Positions 10,468 to 29,184 of a DNA stretch of 32,301 nt are shown piece after piece; position 1 is the first letter of the stretch, and each line of letters starts with the position of its first letter. Under the pieces are notes generated by a model that did not search any database, was not told the origin of the DNA, and was given only the letters and a program-made list of their open reading frames with translations. Source of the stretch: a virus; the IMG/VR virus record IMGVR_UViG_3300006100_000043. One strand, 5' to 3'. A program made the translations under genes and the position numbers.

Positions 10468-10468
10468 T

Positions 10469-11661: not shown

Positions 11662-12526
11662 GACAATAGTGACGAAACAACTGGCTGAAAAAGATCCAGC
11701 AACACACATTGTAATTCCAGATACCCAGGCCAAGGACGGTGTTCCAACAGATCACCTCACATGGATCGGTAACTATATCGTGGAAGAATTTCACAACCAA
11801 GATGTGAAGATCATCCACCTTGGTGACCACGCTGATATGCCAGCCCTTTCAATGTACGATAAGGGCAAGAAGAGCATGGAGGGTCGTCGTGTTAAAGCAG
11901 ACATTGAAGCTGCGAATGAACACTGGCGCATCCTCAATCAACCGTTATACGATTATAACGACAACAAGCGCAAGAGCAAACACGCTATCTGGAATCCAGA
12001 GCGTCATATCTTGCTCGGCAACCACGAAGATCGTATCAACAGAGCAACAGAAATGGATGCTCAGATCGATGGGTTGTTCAGCACCGATGATCTTGATTAC
12101 GCAAGAAGTGGCTGGAGAGTAAGCCCGTTTAAGAAAATTCTGTGGTTGGATGGAGTGGCTTACAGCCACTTTTTTTATAACCACATGACGGGTGTACCCT
12201 ATGGTGGCAATATCGATACGCGTCTTAAGACTATCGGCCACTCATTCACTATGGGTCATCAGCAGACTTTCCTTTATGGTATGCGATACGTCAACGACAG
12301 CAATGAGCCTTACTCACAGCATGGGCTTGTAGCTGGTGCTTGCTACTTGCATGACGAAGACTACAAGGGTCCGCAGGGTAATGCTCATTTCCGTGGAATC
12401 GTTGTAAAACATGGTGTTCAAAATGGCAGTTATGACATCCAGCAAATTTCTCTTGATTCTTTGTGCCGTAGATACGAAGGTATGGGCGTAGAACGGTTTA
12501 AAAAGCTCAAGTATCCGCATATGTAG
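11636..12526 (+). CDS. Calcineurin-like metallophosphoesterase (about 290 aa)
   Basis: Motifs in order: IVIPDTQ...DG (I), HLGDHADMP (II, GDxxD), LGNHEDR (III, GNHE), TMGHQQ (IV, GH), GACYLHDE (V). Alternative start GTG 11669 with AGGACA upstream would remove the 26-nt overlap with the previous ORF. Confidence 0.75.
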   Translation: MMRKTTTNRTIVTKQLAEKDPATHIVIPDTQAKDGVPTDHLTWIGNYIVEEFHNQDVKIIHLGDHADMPALSMYDKGKKSMEGRRVKADIEAANEHWRILNQPLYDYNDNKRKSKHAIWNPERHILLGNHEDRINRATEMDAQIDGLFSTDDLDYARSGWRVSPFKKILWLDGVAYSHFFYNHMTGVPYGGNIDTRLKTIGHSFTMGHQQTFLYGMRYVNDSNEPYSQHGLVAGACYLHDEDYKGPQGNAHFRGIVVKHGVQNGSYDIQQISLDSLCRRYEGMGVERFKKLKYPHM

Positions 12527-13732: not shown

Positions 13733-14264
13733 GGTTTACGAAGCAGGTAAAGATCCGTCAAAGTACGTACCAGGAGATTTTATTCTGGTGTCGACCAAGG
13801 GAGTCCTTGCTAAGTTTATCCGTTTTGGTCAATTCATCCGTTATCACGGTAAAATGAAGCCCTTTGCTCACTGGAACCATGCTGCTATGGTTATCAGTGA
13901 GAATGGCGACATCGTTGAAGCTGTTGGTCGCGGTGTTGTAGTTAGCAACATTGGTGAGTACAAGAACGTAGAATATTACTACGTTTCTACTAAGCTTAAC
14001 AAGCAAAGCCGTGACCAAGCGGTAGCTGCTTGTAAGAGTTTCATTAAGGATAAGTATGGTTGGCTAACCATCTTGAGTATTGCTACGGAATTGGCAACTG
14101 GCATCAAGATGCAGTTCACCAATAGCAACACAATGATCTGTAGCGCCGTAGTAGCACAATCCCTATGGGCAGGTGGAGTCGTATTCGACCGCAACCCATA
14201 TCAAATGATGCCTGCTGATTTGGCAGCATCTTTCAACATTCTGACGGAATTGCCAAATACTTGA
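13716..14264 (+). CDS. Permuted papain-fold amidase of the YiiX/YaeF (peptidase C92) type; candidate endolysin/cell-wall hydrolase
   Basis: GDFILVST...HWNHAAMVI...VEAVGRGV...MICSAVVAQSLW...MMPADLAAS follows the YiiX order (GDIIF...SH.G..V..EAVG...YCSEVVW...SPQAVF). His precedes Cys (circular permutation). Confidence 0.7.
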   Translation: MSTTYKVYEAGKDPSKYVPGDFILVSTKGVLAKFIRFGQFIRYHGKMKPFAHWNHAAMVISENGDIVEAVGRGVVVSNIGEYKNVEYYYVSTKLNKQSRDQAVAACKSFIKDKYGWLTILSIATELATGIKMQFTNSNTMICSAVVAQSLWAGGVVFDRNPYQMMPADLAASFNILTELPNT

Positions 14265-14826: not shown

Positions 14827-14899
14827 TCCCTGGTAGCTCAATTGGCAGAGCAACGCACTGTTAATGCGTGGGTTCCTGGTTCGAGTCCAGGCTGGGGAG
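14827..14899 (+). tRNA. tRNA-Asn (anticodon GTT)
   Basis: Manual cloverleaf. Acceptor tccctgg/ctgggga, D-arm gctc-aattggca-gagc, anticodon arm acgca-ctGTTaa-tgcgt, T-arm cctgg-ttcgagt-ccagg, discriminator G. No encoded CCA. Confidence 0.8.
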
Positions 14900-14904
14900 C
14901 TTTA

Positions 14905-14978
14905 GGTCTTGTAGCTCAGTTGGTTAGAGCACTTCCCTGTCACGGAAGGGGTCGTGGGTTCAAGTCCCATCAAGATCG
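14905..14978 (+). tRNA. tRNA-Asp (anticodon GTC), CCA encoded at 14979-14981
   Basis: Acceptor ggtcttg/caagatc, anticodon arm cttcc-ctGTCac-ggaag, T-loop ttcaagt, discriminator G followed by cca. Confidence 0.8.
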
Positions 14979-14982
14979 CCAT

Positions 14983-15053
14983 TGAGGGATGGTGTAAAGG
15001 CAGCACAAAAGACTTTGAATCTTTTAGTCTAGGTTCGATCCCTAGTCCCTCAG
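14983..15053 (+). tRNA. tRNA-Gln (anticodon TTG), CCA encoded at 15054-15056
   Basis: Acceptor tgaggga/tccctca, anticodon arm aaaga-ctTTGaa-tcttt, T-arm ctagg-ttcgatc-cctag, discriminator G then cca. 71 nt. Confidence 0.75.
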
Positions 15054-15057
15054 CCAT

Positions 15058-15130
15058 GGGACTGTAGCTCAGTGGTAAGAGCGGAAAGCTTATATCTTTC
15101 TGGCCGTAGGTTCAATTCCTACCAGTCCTA
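15058..15130 (+). tRNA. tRNA-Ile (anticodon TAT, reads AUA), CCA encoded at 15131-15133
   Basis: Acceptor gggactg/cagtcct (G1-U72), D-arm gctc-agtggtaa-gagc, anticodon arm gaaag-ctTATat-ctttc, T-arm gtagg-ttcaatt-cctac, discriminator A then cca. Confidence 0.7.
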
Positions 15131-15221
15131 CCATTTAAAACATGCTCTGAGTTATAGCAGTAATTAGGCAATATATGCCTATATTCAGCGTTCCTATTGG
15201 GACAATATAAGGAGTAACACG

Positions 15222-16643
15222 ATGACCTCGATGTTCGATTTTGACGATTCAGTAAACATTGCTTTTGATGCAAAGATTGCTGGTAAGAATCTCGTAACCG
15301 CTAAGCACGAATTGCTTACAAAGACCGGTGAGTTCCTTTTCTTGGCCCACAGCGATCACGAGCTTGCTAGCCGCATGCAAATGGTAGAGAAGGACATCGA
15401 GAAGGTTGCCCACCGTCGTCTTGCTTCAGTTAGCGACTCTAAGGCTAAGCTTGTCCGCGCTGTATACGATGAATGGCAGATTCGTCACGCTCGTTGTGAA
15501 ATGTGCAAGCTTGCATGGGGTTTGAACCCCATCTCTGACCTTGGTCAAGCGATTACTGACATTGGTGGCGCTGCTGGTAAGGCAACCAGATCCGTTGTTA
15601 ACGACCTGTCTGGCGCTGCTGGCGCTGTTGGTCGTGGTGTACGTGATCTTGGCCACGATGCTGCAGGACTTGGTAGAAACCTTTCTGGCGATGCTAAGAC
15701 TGTTGCTCGTGGTGTTGGTGAAGCTGCCGGTACCGCTGTTAATGGTCTCGAGAACGTTGGTAAGGGTGCAATTGACATTGCAAAGAAGGCTCCTGGCGTT
15801 CTCGACAATGTTGCCCGTGGTGTTGGCAATGCAATTGGTCAAGGTGCTCACGACACCGCAGGTGCTTTTGATACTGCTAGACACGATACTGCAGGTGCTG
15901 CTGACGCAGCAGGCCGTGGTATCTCACGTGGATTCGACGTAGCTAGACACGACACCGCAGGTGCTTTTGATACTGCTAGACACGATACTGCAGGTGCTGC
16001 TGACGCAGCAGGCAGAGCTATTGGTCAAGGTGCTAACGATGTTGCACGTGGATTTGATGTAGTGCGTCACGATACTGCAGGTGCTGCTGACGCAGCAGGC
16101 CGTGGTATTAGCAATGATGCTAAGTCCGTTGCTCGTGGTTTGGGCCAGGGTGCTGGTGCTGCTGTAAATGCCGGTGAAAGTTTCATGGGCGATGTAGCTC
16201 GTGGATTCGACGTAGCTAGACACGATACTGCAGGTGCTGCTGACGCAGCAGGCAGAGCTATTGGTCAAGGTGCTAGAGATGTTGCAGGCGTTGCTAAGAC
16301 TGTCGGTACCGATGCTGTTAAGGGTGTAGCTGCTCCGTTCGCCGGGGCTGTTAGCGCCGTTGGATCAATGGGAAGCCAATTTATTCAGGGCTTTGAGAGC
16401 AAGGAAGACAACGACAACAAGAGAGGACCTAGCACATCAACTGGTGGTCCTGGCGGATCAGGTGCACCTGCTGCTGGATCTGCAGGTACTATGCGATCGA
16501 CTCCTGCTTCTCAAGCGATTAACAGTGCAAAAGCTAAGTTGACACCTGACACTGATCACGACAATGACACAGGCGATGCAAACGAAGCCAACAAGACAAT
16601 TGGCGACAAGAGAACATCGTACGATAGAAATTTTCCCTGGTAA
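15222..16643 (+). CDS. Gly/Ala-rich tandem-repeat protein (473 aa), probably abundant virion-associated
   Basis: Strong RBS TAAGGAGTAACACG-ATG. The central 250 aa are degenerate 11-residue repeats with at least six copies of HDTAGA(A/F)D(A/T)A(G/R) and four of RGFDV(A/V)R. C-terminal Gly/Ser/Asp-rich tail. Confidence 0.8.
   Translation: MTSMFDFDDSVNIAFDAKIAGKNLVTAKHELLTKTGEFLFLAHSDHELASRMQMVEKDIEKVAHRRLASVSDSKAKLVRAVYDEWQIRHARCEMCKLAWGLNPISDLGQAITDIGGAAGKATRSVVNDLSGAAGAVGRGVRDLGHDAAGLGRNLSGDAKTVARGVGEAAGTAVNGLENVGKGAIDIAKKAPGVLDNVARGVGNAIGQGAHDTAGAFDTARHDTAGAADAAGRGISRGFDVARHDTAGAFDTARHDTAGAADAAGRAIGQGANDVARGFDVVRHDTAGAADAAGRGISNDAKSVARGLGQGAGAAVNAGESFMGDVARGFDVARHDTAGAADAAGRAIGQGARDVAGVAKTVGTDAVKGVAAPFAGAVSAVGSMGSQFIQGFESKEDNDNKRGPSTSTGGPGGSGAPAAGSAGTMRSTPASQAINSAKAKLTPDTDHDNDTGDANEANKTIGDKRTSYDRNFPW
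15849..16274 (+). repeat. Intragenic tandem DNA repeats (66-bp perfect duplicate with 99-bp period, plus two further 33-35-bp copies)
   Basis: 15849-15914 is identical to 15948-16013. Core gacacgatactgcaggtgctgctgacgcagcaggc recurs at ~15880, ~15979, ~16068 and ~16219. gcagagctattggtcaaggtgct occurs at 16011-16034 and 16251-16274. Confidence 0.85.
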
Positions 16644-16668
16644 CCACAAACCCAGGGTTTAGTGGTAC
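16644..16668 (+). terminator. Weak stem-loop after repeat-protein stop (ccctgg...ccaggg / aaacc-cag-ggttt) with only a 3-T tail
   Basis: Inverted repeats directly after TAA 16641-16643; poor T-run, so intrinsic-terminator status is doubtful. Confidence 0.2.
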
Positions 16669-16699
16669 AACTGCGAAAATTAAAAATGCTTTCAATCTA

Positions 16700-17392
16700 T
16701 TGAGAAATGCTTCTGGCACAACGCCAGCGCCTGGTTCTCTTGATTACGTCGATTCATTGTTACACATCACTTCACCTGCAGCAACTACTCAGACTAAAAC
16801 TCCAGCAGCAGCTGGATCGGATGAGGGTGAACTTAGCCCTTTGAAAAAAGAAGAGCTTCAGAAGGTAATCAACCAAGACCGTAGAATGCACATCAATGTT
16901 CCGCAGAGTGCAATTGATGAAGTTAACGCACCAGCAGATACCCCTCAAGAAGATCAGACTGAAAAAGCAGTTAAGTCTCGTCAAAAAGGAGAAGCAGAGA
17001 CTGCCAGGGCCAATGAATCTAAGGGTCCTATTAGACAGCCTACCACTCCAACGCCTGGTACAAAAACACCGACTAACGTGGCACCAGTTGCACCAGTTTC
17101 CAATAAGCCAGTAAAGCCTGTCGTTGCACCAATTCCAGCAGGCGTGGTAAAGACACCGATCGTTCCAGCTCAAACATCTCCTGTTAAGCCTGTTGTGCCG
17201 CAAGGCACACCAACAGGTTCTCCTGGTAAAACCGGTCCTGGCAAGGATCTCGGTTTTAAGTCTGTGCCAGCAACAACATCTCCTACTGTAAACATGAATC
17301 CTAAGCCCAAGGCTACTGCCCCAACTACATCAGGTACTGGAAGTAGTGCGGAGCAGGCCATTCAAAATGGCGCCGCGTTCCTAGGTGTATAA
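16700..17392 (+). CDS. Pro/Thr/Val-rich low-complexity protein (230 aa); start codon uncertain (TTG)
   Basis: Long open frame with no in-frame ATG until codon 62; the track start is TTG 16700. Motifs TPTPGTKTPT, PVKPVVAPIPAGVVKTPIVPAQTSPVKPVVP. Confidence 0.5.
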   Translation: MRNASGTTPAPGSLDYVDSLLHITSPAATTQTKTPAAAGSDEGELSPLKKEELQKVINQDRRMHINVPQSAIDEVNAPADTPQEDQTEKAVKSRQKGEAETARANESKGPIRQPTTPTPGTKTPTNVAPVAPVSNKPVKPVVAPIPAGVVKTPIVPAQTSPVKPVVPQGTPTGSPGKTGPGKDLGFKSVPATTSPTVNMNPKPKATAPTTSGTGSSAEQAIQNGAAFLGV

Positions 17393-17402: not shown

Positions 17403-20400
17403 ATGTACAATTCAAAGAACAACCAAAAAGTTGCAGCAGAGCAAGATACATATGCATTTGCCAAATCATTAGACGATGCTGCTCATGGTGGTGATCTCGG
17501 TAAAAGAATTGGTGTTACCAATATTTCCACGCAAGCTGGCTTGTGGGACCGTTCCAAGAAGCTGTGGAGCGAAGGTGTCTACCCGAAAGCATCGGAACTA
17601 ACACCAGGTACATTTGCCACACCATTCGCTGGCCTTCAAGAACAATTGTCTAGTATGCCTGCGGTTACAAAAGGTGGCAACCAAGGTGAACGTGTAATTG
17701 GTGGTTTTAAAAACGCTGATACTGGCCACTCATATGCAATGAGAATGTTCTACCAACCAGATGGTGACAACCACCGTCTTAAGGTATCTGTGCATTTGCC
17801 AGAAAGCGGAGTAAACGCTCACGGCAATCATATCTATGACGTTGAATCAGGTAAGTGGCACCTTCCCGGCGAATCTCACGATAGCCCAGAAGCAATTTCT
17901 TCTTACAACCCCATGGAAGTAATGCAAAGCGCACCAGAAGACTTTGCTAATGCAACTCAATGGACTAAATTCAACACGCCATCTCACTCAGATGGTTTTT
18001 GCAAATCTTGCAAGCGTTTCCCAAGATTTCTTAGCCGCATGCTTAAGATTATGCGACCAGAGAATTGTACAGCTTGTGGAATGCGTGGTGGTGCTCCTGA
18101 GTACCCATGGGAACCTGGTACGTTCGTTGATTTAAACTCAGAAAATGGAACTGGTGTTCAGACCAGTGCTTTTTCTCAATACATGGGGCCAATCTGTCGT
18201 AACAAAAAATGCATTAGTTACAATAAGTCTATCGCTTCCGAGCCAGCGTTTGTAACTCCTGATTACCAGGTAGTTTACCCCGGTGCCGTCGGTGCACAAG
18301 GCAAGAAAATTTACCAGTTAACACCAGCCAAAGTGTCTGAGTTCAGAGATCTTAGAGCAGAGAGAGAATCTAAGAGAACAGAAATTTCTCGGCGGATTAA
18401 CGATGCCAGACTCCTTGGTGACTTGGGCGAAAATGGTGATTACCACGCAGCAAGAGATGAACAGTCTTCAAATGAATACATGATTTCATCATTAGCAGAA
18501 ATGCTTGCAAACCATGAAATCGTTGATAGCTACAAGCCTGATCACAAGCACCTAGAAGAACCAGGTCAGACGACTGCACCATCAAGAATGGTATATGATA
18601 ATCCCATTATCAAGGAAGCCGTAGAGCGTGGCGGTGCAAAAGCAATTAGCTTGCCAGCTGCAAGTTTAGAATGCGATCATGAAGATTGCCCTGACACAGT
18701 TCTTGATCAAACAACTGGAAGAATTAATACAAGTAGACCAATTAGAACTCATGTCGATAAGTTCCCAAAGCTCGGTATTTTGCCATGCCAACACTGTCGT
18801 CGCGGCGCTGCAAGTGGTGTCAAAACTGTAACCACCGAAGATGGATACACAAGATGTGATCCTTCAGAGTACGGTGCCAACACATGCGCACCATTGCCGC
18901 AAAGAATTGCTGATGATCGTGCAGATGATTACTTTAGCTGGTTTGATCCAGACCCCGTAGACAAATACCCTGTAATTAAAAAAGATGCTGGAACGGGTAT
19001 GGGAGTTCTTTTTCAACGTACTGAAGACGAGCAGGATCCAAACAAGCCCAATGGTACATACCCTGGTACTCAAAGAATTTTCATGAAAAACCCATCCAGT
19101 GGTAGAGATCCAGTCGGCAACGGCTATGAGAGCCCCAGAGATTACTTCAAGTTTGGTAAGAAGTCCCCATGGACACGTTTCGGCATGTTCGGACGCAAAA
19201 TCATGGATCGACTGCCCTTGGTTGATCATGAAAGTGACGAAGCAAAGGAATACGCTACAAAGTACAATTTGGCTGATCAGGTAAGAACAGAGATGGGTAG
19301 TGCCAATCTTAGTGAAGACGATATCAACCGTAATGCCAACATTGAAGCAGCCAGCAAGATCAATGGAAAAATTTTAAGTGAACATCGCTCCAAGGCGCAG
19401 GGTTCATTGGCTGAAGAACGCATTACACCTGAAGACTTCGAAGAACTCTCATCAACACCGGTAATTGGTAGCTTAGATAGTATATCAGACACTGATCCTG
19501 TGCTTACGACTTCTATTAATCCTTTTAGATTGCCAGAAGATATTGATGAACGCATAAAGCCACAAACAGCAGTCGATGAACTGGGTCGCGAAGTTGCTCC
19601 TGGTGAGGATCTGAGCCAGGAAGACTATGACCTTGCACGTGGTTACGAGGCACGAAGCATCCCTACGGTATCAAGTATTGTTTCGGATCTTGCTCAGGGA
19701 ACAGGTACATCGCACGATCCAATTCGCTTTAGAGAAAAGCGCGGTTCTCGAAGAATTGTTGCTAATGCATCTGGTTTTGTTTATCCAAAACAAGTTCCTA
19801 TGAGTCTCGATAGTGGTGTTGATTGGGATGATCTTTACGGTGCTCGTCCTGATCTTGTCATACCTGATACACCAGATCAGGAAGAAGTTTTCCAAACTCA
19901 GAAAGCAGTAACACCTGGAGAATCATTGGCAATTGCTCAGAATGAAGTCACAGACTGTCCTGAATGCAAAACCATGTCGATCCTTAACAATGTGCGAGGA
20001 ATGGTGCCACAATCAGCGGTATACGTATCACCGCACTGCCCAACGTCACAATGCCCAGGTGGAGAAGAATGCCACAGTGATATGACCAACAGAAGCCCTC
20101 ACTGTCACGGCTGCAAGGATCCAAAAATTTGTGTTGGCAGAAAGAGAAAAGTTTGGCGCAATGTAGATGCAGTCTGCTCAACCTGTGATAATAACGGGTT
20201 TGTAAGCCCTTCAAAGGTTGCTGACAGGGTTATTCCTGCAATTGGAGAAGGAGCACAGCGTAGAGATATTGGTCACGAAGATATCGTTGGAAATCCAACC
20301 AATGCAATGGATGTGTTTAATGATAGAATCGGTGAATCAGCTCTCGGTGATCTCGAAAGCCATGGTATTGAAACCACTGGTCTTAGCGTTGATGCGATCA

Positions 20401-20972
20401 ACCGTGCTAGAGAAATTGCTAACTGGCAGCGTCAAAAGGACAGAGAACAAGGTCTTATCGTCCATGATTTTGAACTCGAAAACGAAGCTTCAGATCTAAA
20501 GAAGCTTGGGCCTGCGGCATACTTGCAAGCAGTGGAAAATGGCGTCTATGATGCTGATCAACCACTTATTGCTAGTCTAGAACAAGACGTACAAGATATG
20601 GTAACCGAACCACCCCGTGAGGGATTGACAAATCTGCAGTTTGATTCACCAGCTGCTCTTGAACGCGTTAGAAGATTGCGTGAAGATGCACCAAGAGAGA
20701 AGCTTGTAAAGCGTGATGAAAAAGACGATTCTCCATATGTCAGCACAACAGAAGTTAATAATATCCCTGTGGCGCGTATAGAACATGATGAGAAATGCAC
20801 GAAATGTAACCGCGGAATTATTATACCTGAGGTAGTTGGTCCAGAAGAAATGAGAAGAATCAACAACGTAATTGGTCAGGCTACTGCTCAGATTAGAAGA
20901 ACAGTCCCAGCAGAACAGCAGCCTGCGGCAATCAACCAGATGATAGCTGACCAGATGAAGTGTAGAGGATAG
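17403..20972 (+). CDS. Very large hypothetical protein (1189 aa) with multiple Cys-knuckle clusters
   Basis: Uninterrupted 3.57-kb ORF. Cys clusters include CKSCKRF...CTACGMRGG, CDHEDC, CQHCRRG, CPECKT, CPTSQCPGGEECH...HCHGCKDPKIC...CSTCDNNG and CTKCNRG. No Walker A or polymerase motifs found. Confidence 0.8.
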   Translation: MYNSKNNQKVAAEQDTYAFAKSLDDAAHGGDLGKRIGVTNISTQAGLWDRSKKLWSEGVYPKASELTPGTFATPFAGLQEQLSSMPAVTKGGNQGERVIGGFKNADTGHSYAMRMFYQPDGDNHRLKVSVHLPESGVNAHGNHIYDVESGKWHLPGESHDSPEAISSYNPMEVMQSAPEDFANATQWTKFNTPSHSDGFCKSCKRFPRFLSRMLKIMRPENCTACGMRGGAPEYPWEPGTFVDLNSENGTGVQTSAFSQYMGPICRNKKCISYNKSIASEPAFVTPDYQVVYPGAVGAQGKKIYQLTPAKVSEFRDLRAERESKRTEISRRINDARLLGDLGENGDYHAARDEQSSNEYMISSLAEMLANHEIVDSYKPDHKHLEEPGQTTAPSRMVYDNPIIKEAVERGGAKAISLPAASLECDHEDCPDTVLDQTTGRINTSRPIRTHVDKFPKLGILPCQHCRRGAASGVKTVTTEDGYTRCDPSEYGANTCAPLPQRIADDRADDYFSWFDPDPVDKYPVIKKDAGTGMGVLFQRTEDEQDPNKPNGTYPGTQRIFMKNPSSGRDPVGNGYESPRDYFKFGKKSPWTRFGMFGRKIMDRLPLVDHESDEAKEYATKYNLADQVRTEMGSANLSEDDINRNANIEAASKINGKILSEHRSKAQGSLAEERITPEDFEELSSTPVIGSLDSISDTDPVLTTSINPFRLPEDIDERIKPQTAVDELGREVAPGEDLSQEDYDLARGYEARSIPTVSSIVSDLAQGTGTSHDPIRFREKRGSRRIVANASGFVYPKQVPMSLDSGVDWDDLYGARPDLVIPDTPDQEEVFQTQKAVTPGESLAIAQNEVTDCPECKTMSILNNVRGMVPQSAVYVSPHCPTSQCPGGEECHSDMTNRSPHCHGCKDPKICVGRKRKVWRNVDAVCSTCDNNGFVSPSKVADRVIPAIGEGAQRRDIGHEDIVGNPTNAMDVFNDRIGESALGDLESHGIETTGLSVDAINRAREIANWQRQKDREQGLIVHDFELENEASDLKKLGPAAYLQAVENGVYDADQPLIASLEQDVQDMVTEPPREGLTNLQFDSPAALERVRRLREDAPREKLVKRDEKDDSPYVSTTEVNNIPVARIEHDEKCTKCNRGIIIPEVVGPEEMRRINNVIGQATAQIRRTVPAEQQPAAINQMIADQMKCRG

Positions 20973-20973
20973 C

Positions 20974-21729
20974 ATGGCGGGTAAGAACGTTATTTTTAGA
21001 ATTGGCATCTCTCAGAACCCTTGCGAAAGAGCAATCGATCGTGCCGAGCTGTCAGACGAAGCATACTTGCGCAGACACGGTGTAAGCAAGGCGGCTGACA
21101 ACGTATGCGATGGATTGGATCACACTGATCCTAATCGACAGGAAATTTTCCTAAGAGACCGATTGGATGCTGCCATGTTGACTGACCCTCGAGCAGTTGA
21201 CACTAGACAGCACAATCCTCAAGCAGAAATTGTCAATATCCTCGCAGGTAAATCACCCGTCCTCAGCTGCGCAAATCACGCACAGTCATACAAGGACAAT
21301 GGGAACAAGGTTACTTTGATTACTCAGTTTTTCCGTCCAAGATTAAACCCAGGTGAATCGCCATCACTACAACGTTTGTTCGTTAAGCGTTATAACTACA
21401 GAAGACAGCGTGCAGAAGATATTGCAAAGCGCGAACGCGAATTCGATGCTCAAAACAATGCTGCAGAAGCTGCCAACCCGATCAATTCAACACCAAGTAA
21501 TTGGTCTTCCGATAAGTTCACCCCAGTGTGGACAAACAATACAGAACTCCCAGAAGAGACACCAGAAGAAACTCCAACCACTGATTACGGCATTGCAAAT
21601 ATTGTAAACCAGTTCCAGGCTGCTCTCTACGGATCAGAGATGGTAGATGGTCCAACCGACACCAATGCCAGTAGCCATGTAGCGGCTCCAAGCACGGGAA
21701 CACCACCACAACCACCACAGGTATTCTAA
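20974..21729 (+). CDS. Hypothetical protein (251 aa)
   Basis: ATG 1 nt after the upstream TAG; C-terminal Pro-rich PPQPPQ. Confidence 0.7.
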   Translation: MAGKNVIFRIGISQNPCERAIDRAELSDEAYLRRHGVSKAADNVCDGLDHTDPNRQEIFLRDRLDAAMLTDPRAVDTRQHNPQAEIVNILAGKSPVLSCANHAQSYKDNGNKVTLITQFFRPRLNPGESPSLQRLFVKRYNYRRQRAEDIAKREREFDAQNNAAEAANPINSTPSNWSSDKFTPVWTNNTELPEETPEETPTTDYGIANIVNQFQAALYGSEMVDGPTDTNASSHVAAPSTGTPPQPPQVF

Positions 21730-21730
21730 C

Positions 21731-24472
21731 ATGCGTACATTCAGATTCGTTAAAGATGCAGAAAGCAAGAAAAAGAATAGCGGCGGCAAAAAGAAGAAGA
21801 CTGAGCCAGTAGCTATTGACTGGGGTAGCCTTGGTGTACCAGAAAGCGGCGGCTCCGATTGGCACGTCGACGCAGAACAACAGGAAGCCATCGAGCAACA
21901 CCGTGTAGGCATTGAAGAATACAAGGCACGTCGTCGTCAATTCCTTGAAAGAAGAAGACAGACTCGTCAAGCATATGGTATTCTGCACGGAGATCCACGA
22001 GCACTGTTGAAGTGGATGGCAGAAGGCGGTGTTGGCAGTATGCCAGACGAAGCCGCTGCTTCTATTTCTCCTTATCACAGATCAATGCCGCAGTTCCGCG
22101 AAAGAAGAGACAGTTTGGGTAGGCTCAAGATCGAGCGCGTAAAAGAACTTCTGGAGAGTCCTGGATCCGGCTACACACAACACGTTATTCCAGTTGAATC
22201 ATATGCGCACAATGAACATTGGAAGCGCATTGCTCCAAAGGGTATGAAGGTATTCATTAAGAACGATAAGTTGCCGAGTTCAGGCATTAAAGTGCGTTCA
22301 TTGGAATCAAGCCCCATTCTTGAAGCACGACGTTTAGCAGATATGAAGAAAGCAGTTACGCAGCTTCGCCAAGAAACTGGTGGGTATGAAGTTATCGACT
22401 CATTAAATCCCAACCACCCTCTCAACATCTTTGAGGCTGAGGGTCCTGAAGCAATGTTCGCAAGAATTTTTACTGATCGCCATCAGTTCGCTAGACCAAC
22501 ATCTGAGAAAGTAATTGAGAGCGCAGTCGGTGAATCTGGAGAGCCGCAAGAAGTTAAGGTAGACCCTCTTTCTTTGACTAGTATTTGTACTTGTGGTTCT
22601 GCAGAAGATCGACACGTAACACCAGAAGAAGCGACAGAGCATCATGCTTTGACAGGTGAACACCTTGAGATTCACCCATTTTCACCACAGTACATCATGG
22701 AAAGAGACGGAACACCAACGCCTGGCAGAGTGTTCCGTGCTGGTAATTCTATGCTATTGCGGGCTAAGACAACTCCAAAGCGTGGTGACAACGCTCTTGA
22801 AGTCCCTGCGACTGAGTGGAAGCGTATGGACGATGGCATGGGTTATCGTCTTATGCCGCTCGTTAAATTGGGTGAAACAGCTGAGCGTATTCGACGCATC
22901 TTAATTAAGGGTACAGGTCGTGATAAAGACGGTAGAGAAGTCATGCCCTTTATTAAGCCTGATTCTGACAATTGGACCACATGTAAGGGTTCTGAGTTAA
23001 CAGGTCCTTGCTATGGAGGAAAGCTTAAGCCACGTCGTAGTACCAGCGCAATTCCCTGTGACTGCTGTGAGCCCGATGTTGTTAACAGAGATCCTGAAAC
23101 TGGTAATCCAATATCGGTAGGTCTCGGAAACGGTAGAATCCGTATCCTGGATGATGCTCACAAGCCTTTGTGCCCAACTTGCAATGGACAAGGATTCAAG
23201 CTTAAGGGCAGCAAGTCAGAATCTGAAAAGATTGATTGCGAAACATGCGCTGGCAAAGGGACAGACCCAGCAGCAGATAGTAGTGTTGGAATCCCTTGCA
23301 CGAATTGTGGCACATCGAACGGTGCAATCCTTACGACCGATGATAACCGTTGCCCAATCTGCAAAGGAACTGGTAAGGGAATTGAGAAGGTAAAGCCAAG
23401 AGCGCAGCAGCAGGAAGTTTTCCTAAGACAGGATAGCGTTGTCGAAGGTAACCCCGTGGTGTTGGAAGAATTCTCTGCTAAGGGTCATGGGAATTCAGGA
23501 GTAGATGCGTGGAAAGCGCACGCTCATCCGCAGTGCACACGTTGTGGCGGAGATGATGAATATCAGACTGACTCGGGTCTTCCTTGCAATTGCAGAATAG
23601 CGTCTTTCGACGACAAGAAATCTTTGGTTGCGCCTAGTAACATGAGATTCGTTACACCAGAAGGTGTCAGCGTGCCGAATGGGTTGTTCCAGTTCGCGAT
23701 GACCAAAGCATATCCAGAAGAAGGTACGAACCCTCACAGATTCGTCAATGACTTTGAAACCATTGACCCATCCACCGATCTACCATATGACATTGAATTG
23801 CCATCTGACGATCCTGATCGTGAAACCGAAAACGTTGTTCGATACCAGAATTCCAGTGGCGGACGAATCGATGCTAGAAACTACTTGGGACACTATGAAA
23901 ATGGTATCAACATCCCAGAATCTGCTATGAAATGGTTGCAAGAGAGAAGCGCACAGCACCGTTCAAGTAGAAACGCAAAATTTTGCGCAGCAAATGCTGA
24001 GCTCGAGGATATCTATTCGTTGCTTACTAAGCATATCGCAGAATATCCTATCAACATACCTGGTCTAAAGGTCGAGAAGCCAAAGGCTCAAACGTTGGGT
24101 AACGGCAGTATAAGTGGTCCTTCTTTGCACAAGAGTGTGCAAGAAGCAATTCCTCAGATTGCTCAGTCTCTGCAAAGCGCGGGAGTTAACCCAGAAAGCG
24201 TTGAAATGGCACCGGTATTAGAAGCAGCTTCTAACCTACAATTTGCACGCGATGCTGGTCACCCAGAGGATGAACACTGGGATAACTATAATCAAGCTTT
24301 GAGTCGTGCTGTTGGAGGAATTTTCCAGAACCAGAGACAAGATGTTCCAGAAGGAAGTTACTTGACCCCTAGCAAGATTCGTTCTATGCTAAAGGGACTG
24401 CCGCAACCACTCGATACTCAGCCGGATGCACAATCACAGATTCCAGAGCAGACAGCAGATACCAATGCCTGA
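21731..24472 (+). CDS. Large hypothetical protein (913 aa) containing a DnaJ-type CR zinc-finger domain (CxxCxGxG x4)
   Basis: CPTCNGQG, CETCAGKG, CTNCGTSNG and CPICKGTGKG lie within 70 aa (nt 23171-23380). Lys-rich N-terminus KKKNSGGKKKKT. Additional Cys cluster TCKGSELTGPCYGG...CDCCEPD. Confidence 0.8.
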   Translation: MRTFRFVKDAESKKKNSGGKKKKTEPVAIDWGSLGVPESGGSDWHVDAEQQEAIEQHRVGIEEYKARRRQFLERRRQTRQAYGILHGDPRALLKWMAEGGVGSMPDEAAASISPYHRSMPQFRERRDSLGRLKIERVKELLESPGSGYTQHVIPVESYAHNEHWKRIAPKGMKVFIKNDKLPSSGIKVRSLESSPILEARRLADMKKAVTQLRQETGGYEVIDSLNPNHPLNIFEAEGPEAMFARIFTDRHQFARPTSEKVIESAVGESGEPQEVKVDPLSLTSICTCGSAEDRHVTPEEATEHHALTGEHLEIHPFSPQYIMERDGTPTPGRVFRAGNSMLLRAKTTPKRGDNALEVPATEWKRMDDGMGYRLMPLVKLGETAERIRRILIKGTGRDKDGREVMPFIKPDSDNWTTCKGSELTGPCYGGKLKPRRSTSAIPCDCCEPDVVNRDPETGNPISVGLGNGRIRILDDAHKPLCPTCNGQGFKLKGSKSESEKIDCETCAGKGTDPAADSSVGIPCTNCGTSNGAILTTDDNRCPICKGTGKGIEKVKPRAQQQEVFLRQDSVVEGNPVVLEEFSAKGHGNSGVDAWKAHAHPQCTRCGGDDEYQTDSGLPCNCRIASFDDKKSLVAPSNMRFVTPEGVSVPNGLFQFAMTKAYPEEGTNPHRFVNDFETIDPSTDLPYDIELPSDDPDRETENVVRYQNSSGGRIDARNYLGHYENGINIPESAMKWLQERSAQHRSSRNAKFCAANAELEDIYSLLTKHIAEYPINIPGLKVEKPKAQTLGNGSISGPSLHKSVQEAIPQIAQSLQSAGVNPESVEMAPVLEAASNLQFARDAGHPEDEHWDNYNQALSRAVGGIFQNQRQDVPEGSYLTPSKIRSMLKGLPQPLDTQPDAQSQIPEQTADTNA

Positions 24473-26681
24473 TAAAAAGTTTAACTCAAAGTATTCCAAC
24501 AACGATAACGAAATCTTCGATTTTGACGTTGAATCTATCAATGGAATGGGTGCTAGCCCATTACAAAGTGGCATTAACATTTATGAAGCACCAGAAAGCC
24601 TAGTAGGAACTGAAGAGTACACGCCGGACAATCTGAGCTTTGAAGGAGAACAGCAGGCCGCACAGCGCGATGTCAACAGAAGATACCCGGGTATGAACAT
24701 ATTTGGACCTGGTGTTGAAACTATTTCTGCTTATCCGCTTACAGAAAGACGACTTCACTTTACGCCTGATCCAGAACACCCAGAGGGTGGTTGGGTTGAA
24801 CGCAGACGCCATTCACCAAGAGAAGTAGCTGAACACTTTAAAGCAATGGCAAGACAGATTAGAATGAATCGTTTGCACAGACCTGTTCAAGAATCAGGTA
24901 GAAAAGCGCTGGCCGATCACGCAACGCAGAACATTGTAAACCGTCGTGTTATCAAAGCGAACCTTATTCACATGGCGAAGACATTGAGAGAATCTGGTGT
25001 TAGCACCAGAAGTCAAACTGGCTTTGGTTGTGGCTATTGCTCTGGTGGAACAGACCCTAGATTCAAAACTCTTCCGGACCACCAGAAGCATCTGCAAGTT
25101 TATTGCCCAGTATGTCACAACAAAGGCCACACGGTAGATCACCCACAGATGGAATCGTTCCTTACTGACATCGAGAACTCGTCTGAGGTTGAGAACTATA
25201 ATAAAGACTTCCATGCAAGAGTGTGCGCGCCTGCACAATGTTCTCGTCAATGCAGACTGAAAGGTCTGATCGATCAATATGTTCGATTCCCTCACTGGGA
25301 ACGATCGACTGAACCACTTACAAGAGAGCAGACTCACGGTTCATACAGCAAGTCTAAAGATACTTGGATCGACAACCTTTTGAGAATGAGCGTTGTCAAG
25401 GACCAATTCAAACCACTTGATAAAACGATCGAAATGCTTGGCGGACCTGTCCGTGAAGATTTTGGTAAATACGCTTTTGGCCACTTCATGAACTATGATA
25501 CGGTAAACCCAGATGCCAATGTTCTTGAACGTCCTAACCCCGACGAAATCAATGACAATGAGAGAGTGTTCAGCCCCAGTGGTGGTGGACGAGACAAGCA
25601 GATGTTCTTTATCAGCCTTGGTAAAGATGAAAATGGCAACCACGACATTCTTTACAAAGCACGTCCTATGGCCAACATCCGCGAAGAACGCAGACAGCGC
25701 AGAGTTGGCAAGATGGGTAAGTTCATCCGTCTTCGTGGTGCTAGAGATTTGATGAACTCTGTTGAAGAGCGCGACATTGGTAAGAGAGCCGTACGTGATC
25801 AGGTCTCTAATGCTTTTGATCGCATTCTACCGTTTAGAGGTGAGCAGTCACCACTTGTAAGTGGCGCTTCTGCCAACGATGGCAAACAACAAGATTACTA
25901 TGGTGTTCTCCGCGGTGTATCGCCAGACTACCTTGCTATGACCGATGATCTCGGTGCGTCTGGTCTATGTTACTCTGGTTCAGTAAAGCAAAGAGAGAAT
26001 AAGAACAAAATCCGAGGCTGGTTTACAGCTGTCGGTAAGGGTATCCGTGGTAAGCGAGACGGATTCTCTCCAAAAGCCACAACATCCGTCGACGTTAGAA
26101 ACCGTATCAACCATGGTTTTAGTCGTGAAGAGCTACGTAGTGCTTACCAAACCAGCAATGGTGAAGTCCAGGGTGCTATTGAACGCTTGGCGAACGATGC
26201 TCTTGCAGACCTTGGCGTAAGAAGAGAGAGCTTCGGTAGCGAAGAATCTTACCAATCAGCACTCGAAGATCATGACATTATTCATGGTTTGCGTAAAGCA
26301 GGTGCTCCTATCGGTCAGCAGTCTTTGCCACAATCTAACCAATGGGTTAACTACATGCAGAGCCCTGGAGCAGAAAGATCTCTTGCTACGCCTAGCTCGG
26401 TATACAACAGCCAATTGGGACAAGAAGAGCCAAAGCTTGATATATCTGGACCAGATACCAAGGTACCGATGGCCGACATGCCACCAGAAGTCAATCAAAT
26501 GCTCGCCACTCAAGATGGCGTCAATGACTTCCTTGACATGATCAGAGCACAAGCTGGACCGAGTTCAGTTGATACACCAGAAAAGCAAAGAGCTGCTATT
26601 GAAGGAATCCGACAAAGGAACGGAATTCACGGTGGTTTCGAAGCACTCGGTATTCCATACGAAGACCCAAGCAATTACTAA
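24465..26681 (+). CDS. Large hypothetical protein (738 aa) with CxxC...CxxC zinc ribbon
   Basis: Preferred start ATG 24465 (MPDKKFNSKY...) in an ATGCCTGA overlap with the upstream stop; in-frame ATG 24426 is also possible. Motif FGCGYCSGG...CPVCHNKGH. Confidence 0.75.
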   Translation: MPDKKFNSKYSNNDNEIFDFDVESINGMGASPLQSGINIYEAPESLVGTEEYTPDNLSFEGEQQAAQRDVNRRYPGMNIFGPGVETISAYPLTERRLHFTPDPEHPEGGWVERRRHSPREVAEHFKAMARQIRMNRLHRPVQESGRKALADHATQNIVNRRVIKANLIHMAKTLRESGVSTRSQTGFGCGYCSGGTDPRFKTLPDHQKHLQVYCPVCHNKGHTVDHPQMESFLTDIENSSEVENYNKDFHARVCAPAQCSRQCRLKGLIDQYVRFPHWERSTEPLTREQTHGSYSKSKDTWIDNLLRMSVVKDQFKPLDKTIEMLGGPVREDFGKYAFGHFMNYDTVNPDANVLERPNPDEINDNERVFSPSGGGRDKQMFFISLGKDENGNHDILYKARPMANIREERRQRRVGKMGKFIRLRGARDLMNSVEERDIGKRAVRDQVSNAFDRILPFRGEQSPLVSGASANDGKQQDYYGVLRGVSPDYLAMTDDLGASGLCYSGSVKQRENKNKIRGWFTAVGKGIRGKRDGFSPKATTSVDVRNRINHGFSREELRSAYQTSNGEVQGAIERLANDALADLGVRRESFGSEESYQSALEDHDIIHGLRKAGAPIGQQSLPQSNQWVNYMQSPGAERSLATPSSVYNSQLGQEEPKLDISGPDTKVPMADMPPEVNQMLATQDGVNDFLDMIRAQAGPSSVDTPEKQRAAIEGIRQRNGIHGGFEALGIPYEDPSNY

Positions 26682-26690: not shown

Positions 26691-27110
26691 ATGCCAATTT
26701 TTAAAATTTCGTCAGCACTGAAAAACGCCGATGTAAGCATGAGCGACAAGTCAGCGATCTGTGATGCTTGTGAATACCCAGCCACAGAAGATAACCCCAT
26801 CATTAGTCTAGGTATGACAAAAGATGGTAAGCGAGAAATGCACTCTCACATTCACTGTAAGCCTGCTCAAGATCGTATGAGAGAGCAAGAAGAGTTAATG
26901 TCAAGAGATAGTGCCGTACAACAAGAAGGTGATCATTTGTTCTCCTTCGCCAATAAATTCCGTTATTTTGCTACAGCTATGTCAGATAACAGCACTGTTC
27001 AGGAAACCTTCCCGGACCACCCACAAAGCAACCAAAAAGTAGAAGATATGACTACCAAGCAGGTAGATGCCAACTACGAAAATGGTGCACCAGTACCACC
27101 CAAGAATTGA
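26691..27110 (+). CDS. Hypothetical protein (139 aa)
   Basis: RBS AAGAGGAAAT-ATG; motif CDACEYP...HIHC. Confidence 0.7.
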   Translation: MPIFKISSALKNADVSMSDKSAICDACEYPATEDNPIISLGMTKDGKREMHSHIHCKPAQDRMREQEELMSRDSAVQQEGDHLFSFANKFRYFATAMSDNSTVQETFPDHPQSNQKVEDMTTKQVDANYENGAPVPPKN

Positions 27111-27121
27111 CAATGTAATTT

Positions 27122-27141
27122 GCTAGGGGAAACACCCTAGT
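27122..27141 (+). other. Stem-loop CTAGGG-gaaaca-CCCTAG between genes
   Basis: Perfect 6-bp inverted repeat 12 nt after stop 27110 and 26 nt before the next RBS; no T-run. Confidence 0.25.
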
Positions 27142-27166
27142 GTATGAACCATATACAGGAGAAATC

Positions 27167-27751
27167 ATGGTAGCACGCTTAAATATCAAGGTCGCTGATC
27201 TGTTTGACAAGACAGCTTTGGCAACAGGACCAGACAACAACTTCGTTCCAGGTGGCGTTCAGCTTCCCGGTGACTTCATGGACGTATCGAGCAATCACCT
27301 CCCCGCTAACATGCAGGCTTACAAGGAGCAGCAGCAGGGTCTTGGTGCTCAGATTCAGAAGTACGTTGATGAATCTCACATGCACGCAACTGACGAGAAC
27401 CCCGCTCAAGACCCCATGATGATGGCACAAAACCCATCGTTGGTCAACAGCCCTGACTTGTCAAACGTTCCTTCACCCTTTGGAGCACCTGAAAAGAAGG
27501 CTGCTTCAAAGCTCGCTGCTGAAGTGTACGGCTTCAACAACGCACAGGCCAACGCTGATTGCACACTCGGTGTAGTTGCCAGTGCCAAGACTGGCACGCT
27601 TGTCAGCGCACGTGTTGTAGCTGAGACACCTAGCACCAAGATCGCTGGTACCGTTGTTGCCGTTGGTGACCGCGAGTTCGCTGTTATCTGGGACGACCGC
27701 ACTGCTTCTGTAGAGCGCAAGGCTGACTACGAGCTGGTAGTTACTCAATAA
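27167..27751 (+). CDS. Hypothetical protein (194 aa), likely highly expressed (structural/scaffold-like?)
   Basis: ATG 27167 with AGGAG 6 nt upstream. The track start 27140 is GTG. Confidence 0.65.
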   Translation: MVARLNIKVADLFDKTALATGPDNNFVPGGVQLPGDFMDVSSNHLPANMQAYKEQQQGLGAQIQKYVDESHMHATDENPAQDPMMMAQNPSLVNSPDLSNVPSPFGAPEKKAASKLAAEVYGFNNAQANADCTLGVVASAKTGTLVSARVVAETPSTKIAGTVVAVGDREFAVIWDDRTASVERKADYELVVTQ

Positions 27752-27754
27752 CCC

Positions 27755-28411
27755 ATGTTTAGAACAAGAAAAACTAAGATCACTTCTACTCCTGTAGAAG
27801 AGGTCCTTGAGGTTGAAGAACCCATTTACGAACCTGATTGGTACGAACCACAGGATGAATGGGAAGGTGTTTGGGAAGAACCAGAGCCCGAGCTCCAACA
27901 ATTCACTAACATTGAGTTCTTGGCAGTTGATTACGTTGAGAACGAAATGCAATGGGGAACGCTAACCAATTATGATGGCCAGCAGTTCAAATACCAATGG
28001 GATACCAAATCGAAGAGGATCGTCCGACTGGTTGGCTACAGAATTGACAAGTTGACATGGGATCTATGCAATGAAGTTCTGCTTAAGTACTATGTTAAGC
28101 CAGAGCCCCCTAAAGTTGAAGAGCCAGTTGGCCCAAAGATTGAACAAGCAATAAACAAAGCATTAACACCAGTGGCGACAGCCTTCAAGACACTTGAGGG
28201 AAAAGTTGATAAAGCACTGGCTGCGAGACCAGCTCCTGCTCCTGTACAGGCTGCTCCAGCTCCTCGTCCGCAGACAGTCCAATCAGCACCAATGCCAACC
28301 AGTGATGTGCCAGCAATAAACGTAGCCGACAATGACATCAGTGCGAACGCTATGAGATTCCTACAGGAATCAAGCGTGCCGGATCTAGGCATAGATTACA
28401 TGAGCCTCTAG
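27755..28411 (+). CDS. Hypothetical protein (218 aa), acidic Trp-rich N-terminus, Pro/Ala-rich linker
   Basis: Motifs EPIYEPDWYEPQDEWEGVWEEPEPE; PAPAPVQAAPAPRPQ. Confidence 0.7.
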   Translation: MFRTRKTKITSTPVEEVLEVEEPIYEPDWYEPQDEWEGVWEEPEPELQQFTNIEFLAVDYVENEMQWGTLTNYDGQQFKYQWDTKSKRIVRLVGYRIDKLTWDLCNEVLLKYYVKPEPPKVEEPVGPKIEQAINKALTPVATAFKTLEGKVDKALAARPAPAPVQAAPAPRPQTVQSAPMPTSDVPAINVADNDISANAMRFLQESSVPDLGIDYMSL

Positions 28412-28419
28412 GAGAAATT

Positions 28420-29184
28420 ATGAACATCGCAGAAGGTAAAGGCCCAAAGCAGCAGAAGAAGACATGGCCATTGGGTCAATTTGTTACCAACTATGGTAAT
28501 GATGGTACACCAGGCGCATTGAATGTTCCTGCGGTGGCATACGGTCAGCAGATTACATCAAGCGGTGTTGGTTACATGACTGCCAATGGTAACATTGGTT
28601 ATGCACAGCCTGGCTCACTGAACCCTGGTCTCAACTTAAACGTTAATGGTAATGGTGCTGTTGATGTTGGTTTCACTTGCGCTCCTGATTCTCAGACAAC
28701 CTTGCAAGACATCCAATCAGTTACAGTGGTGCTTACTGCAGAATCTGGTTGGTCTGGCACTTCAACTGTTAAGCTACAAGGTACATTCGATCGTTACACG
28801 CCCAATGCTTATCTTAACAATGCATCTGCGCTGTCTGGTAGCTATGCTTCTACGAACTGGACCACTATTGCAACAGGTACAGTAACCTCAGCTGCAACAA
28901 ACGTTCTTATCTCTGTCCCAATTGCTAGCGGTTTCTTTTACAATGCTTACAGATTGACAGCTTCTGGCGGTACAGGCATTATCGACTGGACCGTCCCTGG
29001 TATGTTCCTTGACCTTAGCGCAACTGGTATTGGTCAGGAAGCTACTTGGGTTCAAGGCAGCATTGGCCAGCCTAACATTGCTGACGTTGATATCATCACC
29101 ATCTCGGGCGGTAGTACGACTGCTTACTCTGAAGGCAATGTTCCTTACGCAAGCATTGACAATAACCACGACTACTACGGCTAA
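28420..29184 (+). CDS. Gly/Ser/Thr/Asn-rich beta-type putative virion structural protein (254 aa)
   Basis: Strong RBS TAGGAGAAATT-ATG. Composition and alternating polar/hydrophobic pattern are typical of beta-sandwich capsid/fibre domains. Confidence 0.7.
   Translation: MNIAEGKGPKQQKKTWPLGQFVTNYGNDGTPGALNVPAVAYGQQITSSGVGYMTANGNIGYAQPGSLNPGLNLNVNGNGAVDVGFTCAPDSQTTLQDIQSVTVVLTAESGWSGTSTVKLQGTFDRYTPNAYLNNASALSGSYASTNWTTIATGTVTSAATNVLISVPIASGFFYNAYRLTASGGTGIIDWTVPGMFLDLSATGIGQEATWVQGSIGQPNIADVDIITISGGSTTAYSEGNVPYASIDNNHDYYG

Follow-up and report, generated by a model that had tools for sequence, protein, structure and literature searches.

Several phages package proteins in the head and expel them with the DNA, including T7 gp14-16, P22 gp7/16/20, the inner-head proteins of phiKZ and SPN3US, the cargo of crAss-like phages and the virion RNA polymerase (RNAP) of N4, and some of these proteins affect transcription. 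In T4, Alt is an injected modifier of the host RNAP. Alt and the T4 internal proteins have only an N-terminal capsid-targeting sequence (CTS) of 10-20 residues in common; they are injected, and the sequence is removed by the prohead protease (PMC3012670, PMC5694885). Phage-encoded proteins that bind the secondary channel of RNAP exist as well, for example lambda Orf73 of the TraR family (PMC9239242). Here we analysed four adjacent genes, A to D, in the IMG/VR virus record IMGVR_UViG_3300006100_000043, the whole 32,301-nt stretch of which is called the window below. Protein A contains a GreA-type coiled-coil finger, and A and D share a short N-terminal tag with proteins encoded elsewhere in the window. 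We tentatively propose that A-D are head-internal cargo, loaded by way of the tag and injected with the DNA, and that A would plug the secondary channel of the host RNAP.

The likeness to T4 lies in otherwise unrelated proteins from scattered loci that share only a short N-terminal peptide, as the T4 internal proteins IPI-III and Alt do, with a prohead protease in both phages. The T4 CTS is MKTYQEFIAE-like, whereas the tag here is [FY]NSK. No T4 protein resembles the block proteins in sequence; these are zinc-rich and much larger than the internal proteins, and the proposed action on RNAP would be steric or catalytic via the secondary channel rather than by ADP-ribosylation. As T4 is a myovirus, passage of large proteins through a contractile tail is possible (PMC3012670, PMC5694885). 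With GreA, GreB and Gfh1, protein A shares a homologous finger; in the model its helices are about as long as those of GreA, and its invariant acidic tip corresponds to D41/E44. However, it has only this finger of ~80 amino acids (aa), set inside a 1189-aa phage protein that lacks the C-terminal docking domain. The TraR/DksA-type proteins are likewise mobile-element proteins that reprogram the host RNAP through its secondary channel (PMC9239242), but they belong to another family (no DksA/TraR Pfam match was found here), are small (~70 aa) and stand-alone, and are made after infection. Protein C aligns at aa 481-548 with the central zinc finger of DnaJ/Ydj1 (four CxxCxGxG repeats, two zinc centres), but has neither the J domain nor the DnaJ C-terminal domain. 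Like the ejection and cargo systems, the block consists of large proteins encoded with morphogenesis genes; it differs in having no homology to them and no hydrophobic, transmembrane or lytic-transglycosylase parts or polymerase motifs. [quoted passage not shown] Injected proteins and secondary-channel factors are known as concepts. New are the protein families and the tag, and also that a host Gre finger has been fused into a giant protein of a phage. Our literature search found no paper on a phage-encoded GreA-domain protein or on these protein families.

The four open reading frames (ORFs) of the block are as follows.

17403-20972, plus strand: protein A, 1189 aa
20974-21729, plus strand: protein B, 251 aa
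21731-24472, plus strand: protein C, 913 aa
24465-26681, plus strand: protein D, 738 aa

The A/B and B/C intervals are 1 nt each, and C and D overlap by 8 nt; an in-frame ATG further upstream, at 24426, would extend D to 751 aa. Positions and sizes agree with an earlier note on this DNA, made from the sequence alone, which had described four consecutive and coupled ORFs. That note had named interruption of the long ORFs by sequencing errors as a reason to give up its view of them. They are not interrupted: independent assemblies (JGI, ENA and Logan) contain 23 contigs on which the identical 1189-aa product of A was called, and gene order and sizes recur in diverged lineages. Therefore the ORFs are not artefacts, and sequencing-error pseudogenes are ruled out.

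The GreA-type finger of protein A

Protein A consists, in order, of the tag MYNSK, a beta-rich/zinc N-terminal region, the GreA-type finger, a zinc-binding central domain, a variable linker, a Cys module and a C-terminal zinc/helix module. Four of these are located as follows.

18300-18542, plus strand: GreA N-terminal coiled-coil finger, aa 300-380
18651-19202, plus strand: central domain, the most conserved part of A, aa 417-600
19953-20207, plus strand: Cys module with four to five CxxC / CxxCxxxG pairs, aa 851-935
20775-20969, plus strand: C-terminal module, aa 1125-1189

Residues 315-373 of A matched Pfam PF03449 (GreA_GreB_N) at E=6.2e-14; the score was 52.4 bits, where 24.5 is the cut-off. 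In the PDB, E. coli GreA (1grj) was found at E=3.6e-5 with the single A sequence and at 5.4e-10 with the family profile, and GreB at 1.8e-6. The hhalign comparison paired A 306-379 with residues 6-82 of E. coli GreA at 96.7% probability, and the alignment ended there. The NCBIfam GreA models scored 36-58 bits on A, against cut-offs of 139-234, and covered only about residues 14-83. The C-terminal domain of GreA is the part that docks Gre factors on RNAP. With the finger present, and with the docking domain missing and the scores below the curated thresholds, A does not qualify by its sequence as a Gre factor.

The tip of the finger is GDLGENGDYHAARDEQ. G339, D340, E343, N344 and Y347 were invariant in all eight members of the A family (consensus GDL(S/G)EN..Y), and the alignment places D340 and E343 opposite D41 and E44, the catalytic-tip residues of E. 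coli GreA. Such conservation of the acidic tip suggests either cleavage and anti-arrest activity or occupation of the channel; the sequence alone does not discriminate activation from inhibition. In the AlphaFold2 (AF2) model, a two-helix hairpin (308-337 and 345-369) was the sole confident region of A, with a predicted local distance difference test (pLDDT) score of ~75. A Foldseek search of the PDB with this model gave GreA, Gfh1 and GreB, some of them RNAP-bound, as the best matches, and otherwise noise. The alignments, of 108-133 columns, ran past the hairpin, but with a root-mean-square deviation of 10-12 Å on a low-confidence model.

In sequence, the hairpin is host-like. It was 64% identical over 50 aa to the GreA (158 aa) of an Acidimicrobiaceae metagenome-assembled genome (ARLLGDLSENGDYHAAKDEQ vs ARLLGDLGENGDYHAARDEQ), and 36% identical to E. 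coli GreA. In a scan of one genome per GTDB species, the best 80 matches listed were almost all Acidimicrobiia GreA, from the families Acidimicrobiaceae, Ilumatobacteraceae, Microthrixaceae and Iamiaceae; the scan pattern was derived from the phage proteins, so this taxonomic enrichment is biased, and the pairwise identities are unaffected. We are highly confident that the finger is homologous to GreA and host-like. Since the portal of this phage is actinophage-like as well, the host-like finger points to an actinobacterial host, probably of the Acidimicrobiia, and the similarity also points to a finger shaped to fit the RNAP of that host. It is probable, to judge from these comparisons, that the finger acts on an RNAP.

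The central domain that follows carries eight invariant residues in the family alignment (C424, H426, C429, C462, H464, C465, C485 and C495), and after these C/H ligands the motif W..P.P..K.P...D..G.G..Q...N..G.YPG.Q. It had no match in Pfam or the PDB, and its AF2 pLDDT was below 50. This domain is a candidate for a docking domain that replaces the C-terminal domain of GreA. The Cys module is the only internal part of A that is kept in a short homologue from the most distant lineage, L019 (hhalign 98.8% to L019:8124-9209), and it gave a weak match to the DNAJA2 zinc finger (E=0.088). In the C-terminal module, H1128, C1132, C1135 and C1187 are invariant, and the ending ..ADxxKC(R/K)G is found in all lineages including L019.

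Zinc modules and conservation of the block

The earlier note had presented the large proteins of the block as rich in Cys. This holds for A (2.10%) and C (2.19%); the contents of B (1.20%) and D (1.08%) are only slightly above that of the remaining 24 ORFs (0.92%), and clear enrichment is limited to A and C. Clusters, on the other hand, occur in A, C and D (10, 8 and 3), in which nearly all Cys stand in CxxC, CxC or Cx4C pairs. Three of the eight clusters of C contain a perfect CxxCxGxG. One such module lies in C.

23171-23374, plus strand: putative DnaJ-type zinc finger with CxxCxGxG repeats in C, aa 481-548 (C481, C484, C503, C506, C523, C526, C541, C544)

Its repeats are C481xxCxGxG, C503xxCxGxG, C523xxC and C541xxCxGxG, within a wider Cys region at aa 418-621 (22982-23593). 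The C of the window matched PF00684 at E=0.007 with 17 bits, which is below the gathering threshold of 32.7. Six of 33 C-family members matched it at E<0.01 (best 3.1e-5), and the C-family profile matched the zinc-finger region of Ydj1 (PDB 1nlt) at E=2.9e-5. The J domain, with its HPD motif, had no match in A-D or in the 33 C-family members, so by its predicted domains C is not a DnaJ. The role of its zinc finger is probably structural, or one of protein-protein or protein-nucleic-acid contact. The DnaJ-like matches of the Cys module of A and of the CxxC pairs of D were merely faint. In D, CxxC pairs and a C-x4-C-x3-C cluster lie at aa 189-263 (25029-25253), and the C-terminus is acidic. Protein B has the invariants C17, C45, C99 and H102 and an RP(R)LNPGE motif, with a variable, acidic C-terminal half.

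The earlier note could match no part of the block to a family. Two modules are now recognised, the GreA finger (by the 52.4 bits given above) and, with less certainty, the DnaJ-type zinc finger; the rest stayed unmatched. Beyond these two, the block proteins had no match in Pfam, PHROGs, NCBIfam or the PDB, where profile searches with A, C and D returned nothing else. The regions with no detectable relative in these four sources, the PDB being searched with profiles, are A 1-300, A 417-600, B, most of C, and D; for B as a whole, Pfam, PHROGs and NCBIfam gave no family. A, C and D were also considered as paralogues of one another, which was rejected, since their resemblance is weak and only at the level of CxxCxGxG.

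All four proteins are very hydrophilic, with a grand average of hydropathy of -0.70 to -0.82, and G, P, S, T, N and Q make up 36-39% of their residues. A-D contain no hydrophobic or transmembrane segment (maximum 19-residue hydropathy <=0.62), and membrane-channel ejection proteins were rejected on this ground. Regular expressions found no Walker A, DxDxD/DxDGD or GDD-type polymerase motif in A-D, loose nuclease-type expressions gave unconserved matches only, and searches of Pfam, PHROGs and NCBIfam returned no family of enzymes. The absence of enzymatic signatures reported in the earlier note is thus borne out, and an ATPase, a polymerase or a nuclease was rejected for want of such motifs. 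The AF2 models had a mean pLDDT of 42.6 for A (8-sequence alignment) and 37.0 for C (4-sequence alignment), and were mostly low-confidence coil with short elements. Low-confidence coil at shallow alignment is no proof of disorder; it is consistent with small metal-stabilised modules and linkers. Overall, A-D appear to be a conserved non-enzymatic set built of small zinc-stabilised modules on flexible linkers.

Among 5.8 billion proteins, the A family comprised eight clusters, all metagenomic, and the initial searches gave four clusters for C and two for D. An exhaustive profile search of 1.84 billion proteins returned 38 C-family representatives (50% clusters), nearly all of 750-910 aa; conservation within the block reaches deepest in this family, which forms its core. 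The earlier note had suggested a comparison of gene order in related phages, and here the four-gene order does recur in diverged lineages: A-B-C-D, then four small genes, then the portal are syntenic in at least seven lineages at 28-40% identity (relatives compared: L006, L007, L008/L009, L010, L015-L018 and L019). About 9 kb of conserved 'ORFan' coding capacity lies beside the head genes, largely zinc-binding modules, with an architecture that is in no current family database.

The L019 lineage separates older from newer parts. It has C and D, and its A homologue is just 361 aa long (L019:8124-9209). This short A keeps the N-terminal tag (MAYNSK), the Cys module and the C-terminal ..ADQYGCKG module, but three parts of the long A are absent from it, namely the N-terminal domain, the finger and the central domain; no GreA-like sequence was found anywhere in the 22-kb L019 locus. 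Because L019 retains C, D and a short A without the finger, these three are read from the sequences as the old core of the block, and the long A as a lineage-specific elaboration. No homology points to a core function of C and D. The D of L019 (12063-14297) has an extra insertion full of CxxC pairs (..CPTCGCKECNANG..CEFCKDGKTHTGCKECNGTG..). From this insertion and from the reduction of A to 361 aa, the zinc modules appear to behave as cassettes that lineages acquire and lose.

The shared tag and the cargo proposal

The motif [FY]NSK occurs four times in the 9,797 residues of the called window proteins, each time within the first nine residues.

2498-3958, plus strand: tagged protein of 486 aa, N-terminus MTTYNSKRHGRKKFNAL
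4606-4938, plus strand: tagged protein of 110 aa, N-terminus MRTFNSKEAN
17403-20972, plus strand: protein A, N-terminus MYNSKNN (tag MYNSKN at 17403-17420)
24465-26681, plus strand: protein D, N-terminus MPDKKFNSKYS

The 486-aa protein is otherwise unrelated to A-D; it is hydrophilic and has Cys clusters. The N-terminus of C, MRTFRFVKD, is a variant of the tag. The proteins were shuffled 20,000 times with their composition preserved: a single protein with the motif among its first 12 residues appeared in 71 shuffles, and two or more such proteins in none. The codons of the tag differ between the genes (Ser is TCA or AGC, and the aromatic position TAC, TTT or TAT), so that the tag is conserved as a peptide and not as nucleic acid. 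Every lineage, L019 included, has the tag in both A and D. Near members of the C family begin M-x-K-F-x-F-x-K-K-A, and distant ones M..FNSK (MSKFNSK, MIIFNSKRA and MIFNSKNS). A search of IMG/VR by peptide patterns found no relative of the 486-aa protein; walking along a related contig led to a 35%-identical homologue in another lineage (L104, minus strand as stored), in which the tag is kept and even duplicated (MPSFNSKKQPVRKFNSQ). About 30 other genes of this phage are untagged, including the small upstream genes on the minus strand and the head genes. We are virtually certain that the tag is real. By analogy with T4 it may be a capsid-targeting signal, an assignment that we make with some hesitation. 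As a side observation, a 359-aa homologue of window 4895-6040 in the L104 lineage begins MLKFNSG, and the window copy does not.

The features around the block are the following.

14827-15133: cluster of four tRNA genes (Asn-GTT, Asp-GTC, Gln-TTG, Ile-TAT), immediately before the portal-bound module
15222-16643, plus strand: tandem-repeat protein of 473 aa, first of two conserved module-opening genes
within 15222-17392 (the span of the pair), plus strand: Pro/Thr/Ala-rich protein of 230 aa, second module-opening gene
26691-29184, plus strand: four small conserved genes (139, 203, 218 and 254 aa) between D and the portal
29397-31754, plus strand: portal (phrog_2833, E=9e-167), with 40% identity to portals from cluster C mycobacteriophages (Bixzunavirus)
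L012:13451-14113, beyond the window: prohead protease (phrog_18299 head maturation protease, E=5.6e-25)

Beyond the window there are also a decoration-like protein (Pfam Phage_cement_3; phrog_2783, the family of a Cali gp94-type neighbour) and a gene whose product resembles the Cali major head protein at its N-terminus. The block thus opens the head module, after the tRNA cluster and before the portal, prohead protease, decoration and capsid genes, and the portal anchors it to head morphogenesis. A repeat-protein gene and structural-looking genes had been given as its flanks in the earlier note, and the tandem-repeat protein upstream and the portal downstream agree with this. The tRNA position is a module boundary, as marked by ~6.5 kb of genes inserted there in one related lineage (IMG/VR contig 3300020731_000022). 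By portal and capsid similarity, the phage is classed as a distant Bixzunavirus-like myovirus. The local layout of Cali is alike, with tRNAs, a 1237-aa ORF (gp83), a small Cys-rich ORF and the portal; gp83, at this pre-portal position, has no similarity to A, C or D and no tag.

According to our proposal, A-D would be made together with the head genes, and the shared tag, (K)[FY]NSK..A, would take them into the assembling prohead, a route that at least one further tagged protein, that of 486 aa, would follow as well. They would then enter the cell along with the DNA. There the finger of A, presumably captured from an actinobacterial (Acidimicrobiia-like) host with its two catalytic-tip acidic residues kept, would insert into the secondary channel of the host RNAP, and zinc-binding aa 417-600 would be the anchor in place of the missing docking domain of GreA. 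The outcome would be immediate phage control of host transcription: A could either act in Gre-like cleavage and anti-arrest, which would favour transcription of the entering genome and rescue complexes arrested on phage DNA, or occupy the channel, as Gfh1 or DksA do, and so keep host factors out. More speculatively, the zinc modules might let the long proteins pass the tail as a string of small stable units. Packaging and ejection of A-D, argued by analogy, come close to an even chance. In their entirety, A-D could represent an undescribed class of phage-injected effector, zinc 'beads-on-a-string' giants with capsid loading through [FY]NSK and a stolen GreA finger that hits RNAP at DNA entry; we regard this as conceivable but rather unlikely. 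The earlier note had offered an internal-virion set and a host-takeover machine as two options. A combination of both fits, and neither is proven: the head-module position, the hydrophilic and non-enzymatic character and the tag common to A, C, D and two other proteins speak for the former, and the host-like GreA finger in A for the latter. Its analogy to podovirus core proteins, by contrast, is disfavoured by the lack of hydrophobic segments, the lack of any PHROG or PDB match to an ejection protein, and the Bixzunavirus-like portal and capsid.

Several points weigh against the cargo proposal. Packaging, ejection, RNAP binding and the direction of the effect on transcription are all steps that we infer. 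The architecture of small modules on a string is likewise our reading of the sequences, and the AF2 models are poor. Pfam gave no match to the GreA C-terminal docking domain (PF01272) in A. Since L019 has C, D and a short A and no GreA finger in its 22 kb, neither the ancestral role of the block nor its core one can be RNAP targeting, which is an add-on. The tag could function otherwise, for instance in assembly, in turnover or in recognition by a protease, and no cleavage site is definable after it. Furthermore, the window genes are all on one strand, and no promoter or terminator signal divides late from earlier genes; counts in a promoter/terminator scan were at or below shuffle expectation, with no operon boundary definable. 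Because of this co-orientation and the missing class boundary, the position of the block is suggestive only. Finally, A, C, D and two distant C-family members had no tblastn match in 50,697 cultured-phage records.

Part of this evidence would suit a cytoplasmic complex equally. A-D could be a non-packaged takeover machinery made during infection, a large zinc-rich scaffold that sits on the host RNAP via the finger and redirects transcription, perhaps towards late genes of the phage, with a tag that serves co-assembly, turnover or regulation and no capsid targeting. The finger and its host-like sequence fit this equally well, association with the virion is putative, the genes are all co-oriented and show no class boundary, and the other tagged proteins are encoded 13-15 kb upstream, among non-structural-looking genes. 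However, the block lies directly upstream of portal, protease and capsid, and the tRNA/insertion hot-spot separates it from metabolic genes; in T4, the known mark of capsid targeting is a short tag on proteins that have nothing else in common (PMC3012670); and L019 has the block without any finger. A cytoplasmic complex therefore explains the finger as well as packaged cargo does, and the position and the tag less well, and on balance we hold it to be somewhat improbable.

It is still more doubtful that the proteins are structural parts of the virion (tail fibre, baseplate, tape-measure-like or head-decoration proteins) in which zinc only stabilises the folds. Their size and their place next to morphogenesis genes would suit such a role, as would the 1237-aa ORF of unknown function that Bixzunaviruses also have just before the portal. 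Nevertheless, neither Cali gp83 nor any PHROG structural family resembles them. Repeats, collagen-like or beta-helix signatures, a long helical pattern as in tape measures and hydrophobic segments are all absent, and it is not obvious what a GreA finger would do in a tail or fibre. Lastly, the block could hide an extremely divergent virion-borne phage RNAP, as in crAss-like, N4-like and phiKZ-like phages, with the finger as a built-in cleavage factor analogous to the TFIIS-like subunits of eukaryotic Pol I and Pol III; giant proteins near the head genes, the fused cleavage-factor finger and the zinc sites common in multisubunit RNAPs would agree with this, but it is highly improbable, given that sequence and profile searches of Pfam, PHROGs, NCBIfam and the PDB found no RNAP family, that regular expressions and invariant columns gave no DxDGD/NADFDGD-type or other invariant triple-acid motif, that the (low-confidence) models contain no double-psi beta-barrel, and that the finger is a close copy of host GreA, which argues for a fit to the host enzyme.

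If the cargo proposal is true, A would be the first Gre-type factor known as a viral weapon. The tag would be the first signal for capsid targeting to be defined beyond the T4-like and the giant phages, and the viruses concerned would infect Actinomycetota that are abundant in fresh water and uncultured. Phage control of host transcription would then include a new form, a captured Gre finger grafted on a different docking domain. The candidate targeting peptide could reveal the injected proteome of a whole uncultured phage lineage by sequence alone, and in principle could be used to load foreign proteins into capsids, as with the T4 CTS. The near-host sequence of the finger would also assign these metagenomic phages to hosts among the Acidimicrobiia-type Actinomycetota.

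Other features of the window

The N-terminus of the tandem-repeat protein is strongly conserved (MFD(F/Y)DDS(V/I)N(I/L)AFDAKIAGK). It is followed by Ala/Gly/Asp-rich repeats (ARHDTAGAADAAGRGI...), for which Tandem Repeats Finder gave periods of 33 and 87 nt at 15849-16142. Their number varies: the protein ranges from 135 to ~575 aa between lineages, and is 440 or 473 aa long on different contigs of the same phage. In every lineage the four small genes that separate D from the portal are syntenic; none of them had a family match. The first of them, the 139-aa protein (26691-27110), has a conserved CxxCEYP motif, begins MPIFKIS in several lineages, and may belong functionally with the block. The genes inserted at the tRNA position of contig 3300020731_000022 look, as judged by their N-termini, like dehydrogenase, kinase and cytidylyltransferase-like genes.

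Three further genes upstream of the tRNA cluster, the only others in the window that could be annotated, were matched to families.

10448-10978: Dps/ferritin-like protein (Pfam Ferritin, E=2e-18; phrog_3636)
11636-12526: metallophosphoesterase (phrog_221)
13716-14264: permuted-papain C92-like peptidase, weak (E=2e-4)

About 20 other window ORFs had no match in Pfam or PHROGs. A 481-aa ORF with a GTG start at 7542-8987 is probably not a gene, since it overlaps two better-supported genes, 7079-8092 and 8094-8987, which are called on related contigs. The window start is a point of divergence (window 1-700; L021 1-8200), with genes from ~700 on lying on the plus strand. The genes upstream of it (L021 1-8200) are small, lie on the minus strand, include an AAA_5 ATPase, and look like an early region.

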